From Casimicrobiaceae bacterium (GTDB taxonomy: Bacteria; Pseudomonadota; Gammaproteobacteria; Burkholderiales; Casimicrobiaceae), in NCBI GenBank assembly GCA_044226535.1, contig JBGAGT010000015.1:43552-107551 (forward strand): a stretch of 64,000 nt of DNA. Direction: 5' to 3'. Made by a program: the position numbers and the translations under genes. Of this stretch, positions 8,560 through 12,588 are shown one piece after another. The stretch's first letter is position 1; the number at the start of each line of letters is the position of its first letter. Under the pieces are notes generated by a model. The model was not told where the DNA came from, searched no databases, and worked only from the letters and a program-made list of their open reading frames with translations.

Positions 8560-8851
8560 GGTGGCTTCCTCGTGTCTGCGGCCTTCCCTTCGCGGTCCCC
8601 GGCGTCTCCCCTGGCGCGAAGGCTAAGGGCGGCGCGGGCCGGACGGGTCGTCCGCGGTTGGCGACACCGCTCCCGGCGTGGCAGGCCGGAAGCAGCAAAC
8701 TCTTTGATTATACGACGAACTGCGCCGAAGCCGCAAGCCGCGGGGGAACCCGTGTGCCGCGATGCCGCACGCGTTGCCCCGCAGCCCGTTTGCCGGGCAC
8801 AATCTCGCGACGCGCGCGATCCCGCTCGCGCGCAGCCCTCCGGGAACACTC

Positions 8852-9553
8852 ATGCGAACCCTCGATCGCCGTCGCTTCCTCGGCAGGAGCGTCGTGCTCC
8901 TCGCCACAGCCGCCCCGGGCTTCACCGCGCTCGATGCGCTGGCGGCCGTGCCGAGCCTCATCACCTGGCAGGGGCGCCTCACCGACGCCACGGGCGTTCC
9001 GCGAAACGGCAACTTCTCGATGGTGTTCCGCCTGGTCGACGACATGGGCAACGCGCTCGCACCCGCGTGGAGCGAAACGCACGCGGCCGTGGTCGTGCGC
9101 AACGGCTTCTTCTCGGTGCGGCTGGGCAGCAACACCACGCTCGACCCGGCGACGTTTTCCGGCGCCCCGACCGACGTATTCGGGCCGCTGGTGTTCCTCG
9201 AGGTCACGGTCAACGGCGAGACGCTCACCCCCAACGCGCGGCTCACCAGCGTGCCCTTCGCGCTGATCGGCGGCGCGGGCGGCGCGCCCGGCCCCACGGG
9301 ACCCACGGGAGCGGCCGGCGCGACCGGCGCGCAGGGCAACCCGGGGTTCACCGGCCCCACCGGTCCCACGGGCCCCATCGGCCCGACCGGGCCCGGCAGT
9401 GGCGAGACCGGGTCGACCGGCGTCACCGGAGAGACGGGTCCCAGGGGCCCCACCGGAGAGACGGGCCCCACCGGGGAGACGGGTCCCACCGGAGCAACAG
9501 GTCCCACCGGCGCGACTGGACCCACGGGCCCCACCGGCCCCGCGCCCCCGTGA
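8852..9553 (+). CDS. collagen-like triple-helix-repeat protein with twin-arginine (Tat) signal
   Basis: [31 protein letters not shown] contains an RRxFLG Tat motif. A globular domain of about 100 aa follows ([18 protein letters not shown]...). From about nt 9272, 30 G-X-Y triplets (14 + 16, split by one Ser) run to the stop, and 21 of 30 have Thr at Y. Confidence 0.8.
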
Positions 9554-10458
9554 TGTCCCCCCCGCAGGCCAGCGCGAGCGCCCGCGCGGCGCGCAGCATC
9601 GTCGCTGCGCTGCTGGCCTCGGCTGCGTCGCTGGCGGGCGCTGCGACCAGTGCTTCGTTCGGCCTCGAGGCCGGCGACGTCCCGGGCGGCAGCATCGACG
9701 CCGCGTCGGCGCACTTCCGCATGCAAGGGTGCGTGTCGGAGGGAGGCGTCGGCGCCAGCAGCGCCTCGTTCGGCATGCAGTCGGGATGCGGGGCTGCATT
9801 CCTGTCCTTGCCCGCCGACGACGACGATGGCGACGGCGTGGCCAACGGCGCGGAAGACGCGGCCCCCAACGGCGGCGATGCCGACGGCGACGGCATCGCC
9901 GACAGCCTGCAACCGGCCGTGGCGTCGTTGCCCGGCGGCGCGGGCTACGTGACCGCGATCGTCACCGGCGGCGATTGCGCGAGCTTCGCCTCGGTGAGCG
10001 CCGTCGCGGCGCCCTCGCCTGCCAGCGACGCGGGGTTCCACTACCCGTATGGCCGGGTGGCCGTCCACGTCGCCTGCGCGATCCCGGGCGGCGCGGTCGA
10101 GGTCGACCTCGCGTTCTTCGGCACCGGCGCGTGGCCGCCCTCGGCATTGCGCGGCTACGGTCCCACGCCGCCCGGCTTCGGCGCATCGGCCTTCTACACG
10201 CTGCCGGCCACTTTCGATACGCGGGTGCTGCCGGGCAGCGGGGCCGTCGCGTTTGCGCACCTCGCGCTGCGCGACGGCGCGCTCGGCGACGCGACGCCCG
10301 CCGACGGCGTGATCGACGCGCTGGTGGGGCCCGTGCTCGCCGACGCGCCCGCCGCCGCGGTGCCGGTGCCGGTGCTGCCGGGCGCGCTGCTCGCGACCCT
10401 CGGCCTGCTGCTGGGCTTGTCCGGCTGGCAGGCGCGGGGGCGGTTGCGGCGCCCTTGA
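9553..10458 (+). CDS. secreted Asp-rich (thrombospondin type-3-like Ca-binding) repeat protein with PEP-CTERM/IPTL-CTERM-like C-terminal sorting tail
   Basis: ATG 9553 overlaps the upstream stop (TGATG). Signal peptide [60 protein letters not shown] repeats. The tail [32 protein letters not shown] has a motif, a hydrophobic helix and a basic cluster. Confidence 0.7.
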
Positions 10459-12491
10459 GCGGTCCGCAGGCATCGACGGGAACACCGACCGAGGCGTGCA
10501 GCACGCTGTGCCTCAACATGATCGTGCGCAACGAGGCCGCGATCATCGACCGCTGCCTCGCGGCGGCGGCGCCGGCGATCGCCGCATACGTCATCTGCGA
10601 CACGGGCTCGAGCGACGACACGCCCGGGCGCATCCGCGCGTTCATGGACGCGCGCGGGATCCCCGGCGAGATCCACCGCTTCCCGTTCGAGACCTTCGCG
10701 CAGGCGCGCAACGAGGCGCTCGACCGCTGCCGCGCCTCGACACTGCCCTTCAGCCACGTGCTGCTCGCCGATGCCGACATGGAGCTCGTCGTCGACGACC
10801 CCGGGTTCGCCGCCCGGCTGGGCGAAGGCGGCTACTCGCTGATGCAGCGCAATGGCCTCGTGTACTGGAACGTGCGCATCGTCGCGCGCGCGAGCCCCGC
10901 GCGCTACGTCGGCGCGACCCACGAGTACCTGGCCGTGGAGCCCCGCACCGAGCGCCTCGGGGGCGCGTGGTTCCGCGACCACGCCGACGGCGCGAGCCGT
11001 CCCGAGAAATTCGCGCGCGACGAGCGCCTGCTGCGCGCCGAGCTCGAGCGCAATCCCGGCGACGTGCGCTCGCTGTTCTACCTCGCGCGCACCTTGCACG
11101 ACGCGGGGCGCTTCGAGGACGCGCGCGCGGCCTACGCGCAGCGCGTCGCCGCGGGCGGCTGGGACGAGGAGCGCTGGTACTCGCTGTACGCGATCGCGCG
11201 GTGCTTCCTCGCCGAGCGCGATTTCCGGCGTGCGCTCGACGCGGCACGCGTCGCGCAGGCGATGCGGCCCTGGCGGCCCGAGTCGCTGCACGTGGCGGCG
11301 CGCGCGCTGCGCGAGCTCGGGCGCCACGACGAGGCGATCGAGGCCTGCGAGAAGGGGCGCGCGATGCCCTTCCCGGCGGGCGACTCGCTGTTCGTCGACG
11401 ACGACGTCCTGCGCCACGGCTTCGCCGAGGAGCTGAGCATCAGCGGCTTCTACAGCGCCGACGCGCGGCGCCAGCAGCAGGGCGACGAGGCCTGCGGCCG
11501 GCTCGCGACCTCGCGCGACGCGCCCGCCGCGATCCGCGATCGCGCGCGCCGCAACGAAATGCACTACGCCGTCTCAGCCGCGCAGGCCTTCGGCGCCGTG
11601 CGCTATTCCATGCTGGCCGCCCCGCACGAGGCGCCCTGGCACCCGTTCAACCCCTCGCTCGCGCGCCACCGCGGTGCGCTGTGGGCGACGCTGCGGCTGT
11701 CGAACTACCGCGTCGAGCAGGGCCGCTACCTGATGGAGGGCGATGCGGTGCTCACGCGCACGCTGCTCGGTGCGCTGGGCGAAGGCGACGCGCTGGTCGA
11801 CCCGCGCGAAATCGCAGCGGTCGACGAAGCCTCCATGCCGCCCCTTTTTCCGTCCGACGTGCGCGGATTCGAGGACTGCCGGTTGTTCGAATACCAGGGC
11901 AGCCTCTTCGCGTCGGCGACGGCGCGCGACCGCAACGCCGCCAACCGCTGCGAGATCGCGCTGCTGGCGCTCGACGACCAGGCGAGGATCCTGCGCGCGG
12001 ACCTGCTGCGCGGCTTCCACGGCGAGCTGCACCAGAAGAACTGGCTGCCTTTCGTCGACGCGGGCGAGATCCGCTTCGTGTACGCGACGGACCCGCTCAC
12101 CATCCTCCGCTACGACCCGGCGACGCGCGACGTGTCCTGCGTCAGCGAAGCCCCGCAGCCCCTGGCGCTCGGCCACCTGCGCGGCAGCGCGGCGCCGATC
12201 GCATTCGACGACGGCTGGCTGTACATGACGCACGAGACGGTCGAGGTCGCGGGGCGCGGGCGTTGCTACCTGCACCGCTTCGTCGCCATGCGCCGCGACT
12301 ACACGCTGGCCGCGCTGACGCGGCCTTTCCACTTCACGCGCAAGGGCATCGAGTTCGCGGCCGGCCTCGCGGCCGAGGGCGACGAGCTCGTCGTCGCGTT
12401 CGGCTCGGCCGACAGGCAGGCGTTCCTGATGCGCGTGCCGGCTGCGGGCGTGCGCGCCGCGCTCGAGCCGGTGGAGCGAAGCGCCGCCTGA
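10455..12491 (+). CDS. multidomain glycosyltransferase: GT2-like N-terminus, TPR-like middle, uncharacterised beta-rich C-terminal domain
   Basis: [27 protein letters not shown] and LLADADMEL (DxD) are GT2 (GT-A) features. TPR-like helices follow ([27 protein letters not shown]...). The C-terminal domain of about 330 aa contains WHPFNPS and QKNWLPF. No signal peptide or TM helix. Start uncertain: TTG 10455 overlaps the upstream TGA; the first ATG (10518) would cut the first GT2 strand. Confidence 0.7.
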
Positions 12492-12530
12492 TCCCGCCGC
12501 TGGCGACGCGCCAGCCGGTGCCCTGGAGCC

Positions 12531-12585
12531 CGCGCCCGGCCGCGACCACGAGCTCGCCGCCCTCGGCCACGCGCCCGGCCGCGAC
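12531..12585 (+). repeat. 16-nt perfect direct repeat CGCGCCCGGCCGCGAC (12531-12546 and 12570-12585)
   Basis: Read directly. Lies in the 97-nt spacer between the glycosyltransferase stop (12491) and the prs stop (12589). Confidence 0.6.
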
Positions 12586-12588
12586 GCC

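Follow-up and report, generated by a model that had tools for sequence, protein, structure and literature searches.

A three-gene cassette between rplY and prs of a Casimicrobiaceae bacterium as a candidate module for a glycosylated collagen-like envelope fibre

The DNA analysed here, a 64,000-nucleotide stretch of a Casimicrobiaceae bacterium (assembly GCA_044226535.1, contig JBGAGT010000015.1, positions 43,552 to 107,551 of the forward strand), is referred to below as the window. Three plus-strand open reading frames (ORFs), which we call P1, P2 and P3 (8852-12491), occupy the 4030-bp gap between the start of rplY and the stop of prs. An initial annotation, made from the sequence letters, had described them as overlapping genes for a collagen-like protein, an anchored exported protein and a cytoplasmic enzyme. 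Its gene order and coordinates all hold and the overlaps are exact, with the ATG of P2 on the stop of P1 (TGATG, 9551-9555) and the TTG of P3 on the stop of P2 (TTGA, 10455-10458). We conclude that the trio probably forms one conserved module making a glycosylated collagen-like envelope fibre. The genes and their parts are the following.

8852..9553, plus strand: P1, 233-aa collagen-like fibre protein
8852..8944, plus strand: P1 twin-arginine signal peptide (DRRRFLG, hydrophobic stretch, ALA/A)
8945..9271, plus strand: P1 N-terminal beta-rich fibre-base domain, about 110 aa (Bdello_MAT_N)
9272..9550, plus strand: P1 collagen-like region, 30 Gly-X-Y triplets in two runs, 9-nt periodic DNA repeat
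9553..10458, plus strand: P2, 301-aa exported partner protein
9643..9810, plus strand: P2 N-module, three 'S-A-S-F'-type repeats, conserved Cys pair C60 and C79
9811..9912, plus strand: P2 Asp-rich thrombospondin-type-3-like repeat (DDDDGDG...GDADGDG motif)
9913..10338, plus strand: P2 beta-sandwich, choice-of-anchor U-type (NF041766; AlphaFold2 pLDDT 70-88)
10354..10455, plus strand: P2 C-terminal sorting-type tail (VPVPVLPG, hydrophobic helix, RGRLRRP)
10455..12491, plus strand: P3, predicted 678-aa cytoplasmic three-domain glycosyltransferase
10503..10994, plus strand: P3 GT2 (GT-A) catalytic domain (DTGSxDxT, DAD(M))
10995..11570, plus strand: P3 TPR/helical domain (several Pfam TPR families; AlphaFold2 helices 183 to 371)
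11592..12470, plus strand: P3 GH130-like beta-propeller, five blades, residues ~380-672

P1 had been annotated as a collagen-like protein with a twin-arginine translocation (Tat) signal, and both parts of that description stand: the RR pair is found unchanged in all 11 P1 homologues, and P1 reaches 46.9 bits with Pfam Collagen (PF01391; cut-off 27.2). The motif S/T-R-R-x-F-L/I-G is conserved across P1 loci, TIGR01409 (TAT_signal_seq) gives a weak match in 7 of the 11 family members, and the signal motif as a whole (RR, hydrophobic region, AxA site) marks P1 as a predicted Tat substrate. Its start is most likely the ATG at 8852 and not position 8762, since homologues begin 4-6 residues ahead of the RR motif. 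The domain that follows is matched by the NCBIfam model Bdello_MAT_N (NF053851) in all 11 P1 members (best E = 1.8e-9; 35.8 bits for the window P1 versus a cut-off of 60). The corresponding N-domain of MAT fibres is thought to be the cell-proximal base and was proposed to bind an unidentified cell-surface element (PMC10769870). An exhaustive phmmer search with the base domain recovered 14,825 representative clusters at E <= 1e-3, and in most of the best 150 listed clusters the domain begins some 20-50 residues from the N-terminus, at the position expected for the end of a signal peptide. The collagen-like triplets carry Thr at Y in 21 of 30 and Pro at X in 15, and are rich in Gly-Pro-Thr and Gly-Glu-Thr. 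P1 stops right after these repeats, without a C-terminal globular domain, and its homologues (P0133-P0146) have a common layout of 200-250 aa.

P1 was also compared with known fibre proteins. MAT proteins are beta-prism trimers of 500-1100 aa with variable tip domains and Sec signals, whereas P1 has a Tat signal and a collagen stalk; P1 as a full MAT fibre was rejected, as the base domain runs straight into collagen and then ends, with no beta-prism stalk or tip. Streptococcal Scl1 and Scl2 and Legionella Lcl resemble P1 in having Gly-X-Y triple-helix repeats in an envelope protein, and the O-linked oligosaccharides of Bacillus anthracis BclA sit on Thr of a collagen-like region rich in Gly-Pro-Thr. 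BclA, however, has a C-terminal C1q-like trimerisation domain and assembles on spores, whereas P1 has a base domain and Tat signal and ends in repeats. Membership of P1 in the Scl, Lcl or BclA groups was likewise rejected: the NCBIfam matches lie in the repeats only, far below the cut-offs (Scl 49.4 versus 325 bits, Lcl 37 versus 500 bits), and P1 has no LPXTG motif, V-domain or C-terminal (C1q/TNF-like) domain.

The initial call of P3 as a GT2-TPR-beta-rich enzyme was confirmed and sharpened by a PDB sequence search, Foldseek and an AlphaFold2 (AF2) model of three domains (predicted local distance difference test, pLDDT, 92; predicted template modelling score, pTM, 0.87). Relatives were found at no fewer than 523 loci in species-representative genomes; the family is uniform in length, and the 120 best matches are 37-60% identical, with alignments that span no less than 93% of the query in every case but one. 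For the P3 start we prefer the overlapping TTG at 10455 to the ATG at 10518 chosen by the gene caller (P0001, 657 aa), because the 'LCLN' part of the conserved first beta-strand 'LCLNMIV' lies upstream of ATG 10518 and the 150 nt ahead of that ATG offer no in-frame start codon other than TTG 10455; 'LCLN' is conserved in 29 of the 33 aligned homologues, namely those reaching that far.

By its modelled GT-A fold with a DxD motif the first domain belongs to GT2. In the family alignment DTGSxDxT is conserved, with most positions invariant, and DAD(M) is invariant. In the PDB sequence search this domain matched SunS (5.7e-14), GmaR (4.7e-11) and the ThuS-type 7msk (1.9e-7), and Foldseek aligned the N-terminal half (~17-372) with ThuS/SunS at E = 5e-14. 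Thus SunS/ThuS (by sequence and fold) and Listeria GmaR (by sequence) are the best matches to residues 1-~370. They combine, as P3 does, a GT2 domain with a helical/TPR substrate-binding domain and act in the cytoplasm on peptides or proteins; the TPR domain of P3 is presumed to dock its substrate. SunS and ThuS glycosylate Cys or Ser of small ribosomal peptides and are 13-17% identical to P3 over the structural alignment, while GmaR glycosylates flagellin; unlike P3, none of the three has a propeller domain.

The propeller of P3 gave Foldseek probabilities of 1.00 and E = 5e-10 to 1e-8 against 5b0p, 9erg, 9fj8, 7fip, 3wau and 1vkd, with TM-scores (normalised to the target) of 0.53-0.66 against GH130 beta-1,2-mannoside phosphorylases. 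The GH130 phosphorylases Lin0857, Teth514_1788 and Uhgb_MS share the five-bladed propeller, and the NP, EDxR and GWL..H motifs align. Against Uhgb_MS the sequence alignment is non-significant (E = 0.24), but NP(S/G), G(F/I)EDCR and GWL..H line up. In this weak alignment the invariant P3 segment G471-x-E473-D474-x-R476 faces GIEDCR, the region of the catalytic-Asp motif, and the invariant R414 and E473-D474 fall on R47 and E136-D137 of Uhgb_MS, where R47 and E136 have been named determinants of beta-1,2 specificity (PMC12814180). For a beta-mannoside chemistry this correspondence is suggestive, not proof. GH130 beta-1,2-mannoside phosphorylases also show GDP-mannose-dependent transferase activity, and GH130 enzymes and the related GT108 can build beta-1,2-mannosides from mannose-1-phosphate or GDP-mannose (PMC12814180). 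GT108 structures were absent from the 50 best listed fold matches of the propeller, and Pfam GH130 (PF04041) did not match the window P3 and matched 2 of 11 homologues at E = 0.013. Known GH130 members are stand-alone and act on free sugars, whereas the P3 propeller is fused to GT2-TPR.

P2 opens with a signal peptide, followed by the N-module, the Asp repeat, the beta-sandwich and the tail, and belongs to a small family (P0122-P0128). It had been annotated as a Sec-signal protein with a Ca-binding repeat and a sorting tail; the tail was confirmed in its overall form, whereas the Ca-binding repeat stands at motif level, with Pfam TSP3_bac (PF18884) below threshold (E = 1.4 for the window P2, 0.034 for P0126) and most positions of the repeat invariant across 8 full-length homologues. 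The N-module is the sole part common to full-length and 'mini' P2 proteins. The latter (110-135 aa) consist of signal peptide, N-module and tail in three loci (L007, L022, L025) and lack the tail in L015, so that the N-module appears as the conserved core of P2. Choice-of-anchor U (NF041766) matches 8 of 8 P2 members (best E = 4.8e-10). The tail of P0123 passes Pfam IPTL-CTERM (25.6 bits, cut-off 20.8), TIGR04174 matches 3 of the 8 members, and the homologue in L024 has a canonical tail, AIPTLSEWGMMLL...RRR.

Proteins of the IPTL-CTERM/choice-of-anchor U type resemble P2 in having an N-terminal signal and anchor-U ahead of a motif, a hydrophobic helix and a basic cluster. We know of no processing enzyme for this tail class. 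Its members can presumably reach the surface of a diderm cell, by analogy with the Methylomirabilis S-layer protein mela_00855, which ends in an IPTL-CTERM tail (PMC8671808). Neither the IPTL-CTERM nor the choice-of-anchor U definition includes the N-module linked to P1. A further lead concerns the P2 N-terminus (9596-9789, residues 15-79), where NCBIfam CPR_pilus_PamT matches weakly and partly over the signal peptide, in 3 of 8 P2 members (best E = 5e-4; window P2 E = 0.37). PamT itself belongs to a recently described pilus of the Candidate Phyla Radiation, for which it is predicted to serve as tip pilin in the form of a truncated Ig-like donor-strand acceptor; we did not accept the N-module as PamT, the match being too weak (cut-off 240 bits), overlapping the signal peptide and perhaps spurious, and keep it as a lead only.

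The three families are co-conserved elsewhere, at the prs/rplY site in three further assemblies (L001, L005, L011) and in unrelated contexts in L018 and L019 (Binatia) and in L015 and L065 (both Acidobacteriota). Four betaproteobacterial metagenome-assembled genomes (MAGs; L020, L022, L024, L025) have them in the permuted order P3-P1-P2. At least 12 genomes retain the three reading frames in intact, conserved form. In 13 of the 14 loci that allow a judgement, the P1-type gene is followed directly by a P2-like gene, and no P2 was found without P1. Hence the three genes very probably constitute one functional module. Within it the glycosylation enzymes appear swappable and the P1/P2 pair fixed: in L002 (4530-12650, GCA_003704715.1) P1 and P2 lie amid other glycosyltransferases in place of P3, namely a 984-aa GT2-TPR protein on the opposite strand, a 566-aa Caps_synth/Gly_transf_sug-TPR protein and a 292-aa Gly_transf_sug protein. 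In L010 the enzyme beside P1/P2 is a double GT2, part of which resembles the P3 propeller, so that in both loci the glycosyltransferase next to the pair still has pieces related to P3. A viral contig of IMG/VR (L172, 5836-7444) encodes a 419-aa base-domain protein without collagen; directly after it comes a short secreted protein that has three 'SDHF/TSFK' repeats and matches the P2 profile over the N-module (E = 2e-4). The pairing of base domain and N-module therefore also occurs in a very distant context.

The association of the P3 family with collagen-like genes was surveyed in the best 80 of the 523 or more P3 loci. Under strict criteria a Thr-rich Gly-X-Y ORF was present in 61 of them (55 within 2 kb, 19 within 500 bp) and under relaxed criteria in 66; the loci without one are mostly cut by contig ends. 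As controls, none of 80 loci anchored on Prs contained such an ORF, and P1 is the only one in the 64-kb window. In Mesorhizobium and Bradyrhizobium the partners are giant proteins of 500-1900 aa that consist almost wholly of GATGATGST-type Gly-X-Thr repeats and are transcribed divergently from the P3-family gene (loci including L023, L026, L028, L032, L044, L053-L055, L059, L060, L063, L079 and L082). The giant rhizobial proteins have a conserved N-terminal domain of ~300 aa, which we take to be reminiscent of DUF4347, and no RR motif in a signal-peptide context. In other phyla small collagen-like partners stand beside the P3 homologues, many with RR signals (Planctomycetota, Thermoleophilia/Solirubrobacterales, Thermomicrobiales, other Burkholderiales).

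Two of the small partners (L013 9253-9930, L041 5498-6316) combine a Tat signal, 42-46 Gly-X-Thr triplets and a tail of VP-x-x, helix and RRLR; they have no base domain, and no P2 gene lies nearby. The anchor would therefore be carried by the collagen protein or else supplied by a separate P2, a pattern that fits tethering by P2. Beside two further P3 homologues (L035 7949-8509, Planctomycetota; L057 9263-10039, a Burkholderiales MAG) we noted an ORF with a segment that by eye resembles PqqD or the recognition elements of ribosomally synthesised and post-translationally modified peptides (RiPPs), an RR with a hydrophobic stretch, and a short Gly-Pro-Thr run. Because SunS and ThuS modify ribosomal peptides, some P3-family members may, by analogy, act on small peptide-like substrates.

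These associations bear on the question of what P3 modifies. The enzyme might make or remodel a free glycan, such as a beta-mannan or a capsule or envelope oligosaccharide, with P1 as scaffold, lectin-like partner or co-regulated envelope protein. GT2 and GH130 enzymes usually act on glycans, the propeller best matches enzymes of free beta-1,2-mannosides, and other glycosyltransferases occur near some P1/P2 pairs (Gly_transf_sug and Caps_synth in L002). On the other hand, the nearest relatives of the GT2+TPR half, by sequence as by fold, without exception glycosylate proteins or peptides, and a polysaccharide synthase would hardly be expected to pair so closely with Thr-rich Gly-X-Y genes in one phylum after another. 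Moreover, P3 is without the membrane domain of processive GT2 synthases, and the cassette gap holds no flippase, polymerase or export genes. We regard free-glycan synthesis as improbable, and glycosylation of P1 by P3 as likely.

The latter has a characterised counterpart. The initial annotation had stated that no characterised system of this composition is known, which holds in one respect and not in the other: searches of the literature and of curated families yielded no description of the P3 family, the trio or the locus, whereas the enzyme and collagen half has its closest characterised analogue in sgtA-bclA3 of Clostridioides difficile, a GT-A+TPR enzyme gene beside a Gly-Pro-Thr collagen-like gene. 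There sgtA lies immediately upstream of bclA3, its product adds beta-O-GlcNAc to Thr in GPT repeats, and the enzymes extending the glycan were never found (PMC7157674). P3 has the SgtA-type architecture together with the adjacency to a Gly-X-Thr gene; its N-terminal two-thirds shares the GT-A+TPR layout, a likeness taken from the published description and not from sequence. SgtA, of 358 aa, is without a GH130-like domain, whereas P3 has one fused as a candidate extension enzyme. In contrast to the trio, with its Tat signal and N-terminal base domain on P1, separate anchored P2 and diderm host, BclA3 sits on the spore surface of a monoderm, has a C-terminal domain and no Tat signal, and comes without a P2-type partner.

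The co-conserved trio and the confirmed domain calls support the overall interpretation of the initial annotation, a module to build, possibly glycosylate, export and anchor a collagen-like fibre, and those of its predictions that were open to testing all held. We propose that P1 is made in the cytoplasm, where P3 would dock via its TPR domain and its SunS/SgtA-like GT2 domain would add a first sugar to Thr of the repeats by O-glycosylation. The GH130-like propeller would extend the glycan, most plausibly with beta-linked (perhaps beta-1,2-) mannose from GDP-mannose or mannose-1-phosphate. P1, by then folded, glycosylated and probably a trimer, would be exported by Tat. P2 would pass through Sec on its own and stay in or on the envelope by means of its IPTL-CTERM-like tail, with its three-repeat N-module binding the base domain of P1 and so tethering the fibre. 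No N-terminal hydrophobic, signal-peptide-like stretch is visible in P3 and P1 has the invariant RR, hence the two would start in the same compartment; as both are synthesised in the cytoplasm and folded proteins can pass through Tat, a meeting there is the simplest reading. Glycosylated Thr at Y stabilises the triple helix in Riftia cuticle collagen, which provides a rationale for modifying Gly-X-Thr repeats without hydroxyproline. Tethering of P1 by P2 we put at slightly under an even chance, and beta-mannose as the added sugar is a guess worth only limited credence. The module had also been called self-contained; this is not fully so, since it depends on the Tat and Sec systems of the host and on a tail-processing step.

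Concerning the final location, the module may act as proposed up to export and yield a periplasmic or inner-membrane-tethered structural element in place of a surface fibre or adhesin. Tat and Sec deliver to the periplasm only, an unprocessed P2 tail (transmembrane helix and basic residues) would stay in the inner membrane, and the cassette gap contains no secretin, usher or outer-membrane component. Two analogies, and analogies only, speak for the surface: an IPTL-CTERM protein is the surface-layer protein of the diderm Methylomirabilis (PMC8671808), and MAT fibres with a related base domain are surface-displayed (PMC10769870). We consider a purely periplasmic product unlikely, and hold exposure of the fibre on the surface as a tentative proposal.

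Several observations weigh against the proposed glycosylated and anchored fibre. Pfam GT2 on the window P3 is just below its cut-off (20.6 versus 23.3), and the GH130 relationship is one of modelled fold and a non-significant alignment, so that the sugar and linkage made by P3 are guesses. The AF2 model of P2 is mediocre (pLDDT 65, with the N-module below 50), and Foldseek of this model against the PDB gave nothing below E = 0.05, leaving the N-module without a structural match. Furthermore, choice-of-anchor U scores 15.8 bits on the window P2 (E = 0.019), below the cut-off of 32, and its tail, with VPVL and not IPTL, matches no IPTL-CTERM model (PF18203, TIGR04174). In L017 P1 and P3 occur with P2 undetectable, and the L007/L008 lineage has P1 and mini-P2 with no glycosyltransferase in the 6 kb available. 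The contact between P1 and P2 is suggested by gene-neighbourhood logic, Tat export takes P1 only as far as the diderm periplasm with no route to the surface identified, and scans of 8400-12700 and 5000-16000 taken together found no sigma-70-like promoter or terminator-like site. Throughout, the model for the locus builds on sequence and predicted structure.

The cassette lies among minus-strand genes, as follows.

Up to about 7120, minus strand: ychF
7123-7785, minus strand: pth
7843-8559, minus strand: rplY
8560..8851, no strand assigned: divergent rplY–P1 intergenic region, presumed cassette promoter region
12355..12584, no strand assigned: long imperfect palindrome, last ~45 codons of P3 and the 97-bp spacer ahead of the prs stop
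12589-13539, minus strand: prs
13555-13629, minus strand: tRNA-Gln
13657-14541, minus strand: ispE
About 14541-15119, minus strand: lolB
15101-17395, minus strand: TPR protein

That the prs/rplY cluster is truly interrupted was verified by a metagenome scan with the window Prs, which gave 80 loci (Prs 78-96% identical), 61 of them with rplY downstream. The prs–rplY gap is below 400 bp in 50 of these 61, including 191 bp in the closest relative (L091, Prs 96% identical), versus 4030 bp in the window. The other 11 (L092, L093, L095, L103, L104, L106, L107, L110, L121, L132, L148) carry an insert of 0.9-2.5 kb, mostly a short-chain dehydrogenase gene, and none of the 61 has the cassette. One of the three further assemblies with the cassette at this junction, L011, is a Casimicrobiaceae MAG with a Prs 94% identical to that of the window. 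The scan counts together with these three assemblies indicate that the junction is a variable spot that repeatedly takes in new genes and is only rarely filled by the cassette, in a single betaproteobacterial lineage.

Such a site raises the question whether the cassette is a phage tail fibre or mobile-element remnant with no cellular role. The variable junction, the presence of the cassette in several phyla, and the collagen repeats and related base domains of phage-like fibre proteins would be in keeping with this, as would 10 distant matches in a P1-family scan of IMG/VR viral contigs; these, however, cover the base domain only. As the initial annotation had noted, the rplY–prs gap has no integrase or transposase ORF; it holds no phage gene either, and no convincing flanking direct repeats were found. 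Full-length P3 is absent from 50,697 phage and 72,556 plasmid records, which gave half-length GT2-TPR and stand-alone propeller matches only, the stand-alone propellers in phage records being annotated 'beta-mannosyltransferase' or 'MGP protein'. The composition also resembles the surroundings as claimed, with G+C at third codon positions (GC3) of 0.89-0.94 in the cassette versus 0.93-0.97 in ychF, pth, rplY and prs, although overall G+C is slightly higher (0.73-0.77 versus 0.68-0.72; window about 70-75%). With this native-looking codon composition, the conserved intact frames, and the Tat signal and sorting tail as features of cellular export, a functionless remnant is very improbable, and origin as a prophage remnant was rejected.

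The intergenic region 8560-8851 presumably holds the promoter of the cassette. At the other end of the cassette, the palindrome has arms of 49 nt (12355-12403 in P3, 12536-12584 in the spacer) that are 86% complementary, and its RNA fold of -167.7 kcal/mol (z = -4.66) was equalled in stability in 0 of 200 shuffles; it is a possible bidirectional terminator for the convergent P3 and prs. It is absent from L005 and L011, where the P3–prs spacer is 17 bp, and the additional ~80 bp are thus specific to this genome. In the Rfam scan of the cassette region (8400-12700 and 5000-16000) tRNA-Gln was the sole match. The window lies next to the chromosomal replication origin region (gyrB 55166-57610 minus, dnaA 59049-60692 minus, yidC 61783-63510 plus), which places the cassette ~47 kb from dnaA in the core chromosome. 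Beyond ychF, two plus-strand ORFs (4550-5368 and 5378-5974) have a coding-like GC3 (0.90 and 0.95) and no Pfam match, and both are missing at the equivalent position of L001. Pfam scans of the rest of the window, which were not exhaustive, showed housekeeping functions only, with no exosortase-like enzyme or GDP-mannose genes seen.

To our knowledge, experiments have established glycosylated collagen-like proteins whose neighbour is a GT-A+TPR enzyme in Firmicute spores only. The cassette points to a related, differently built system in diderm soil bacteria and several other phyla, with a fused two-enzyme glycosyltransferase, a Tat-signal collagen and a separate anchored partner, and the P3 family beside Thr-rich collagen-like genes in many phyla has apparently never been studied. 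In a wider and rather unlikely reading, the family would be a collagen-repeat O-glycosyltransferase in many phyla, glycosylating Gly-X-Thr proteins in the cytoplasm, with products leaving by Tat or, for the giant rhizobial proteins, possibly by type I secretion, and with the P2 N-module docking the common base domain. If so, cytoplasmic biogenesis of glyco-collagens would be widespread and unrecognised outside Firmicute spores. The P1–P2 pairing offers a concrete candidate for the cell attachment of the widespread MAT-type base domain. If P3 does glycosylate Gly-X-Thr repeats, it would represent an enzyme family for defined glyco-collagens in bacteria and a naturally occurring case of a glycosylated protein leaving by Tat, and it would explain the giant Thr-rich collagen-like proteins beside it in Mesorhizobium and Bradyrhizobium.

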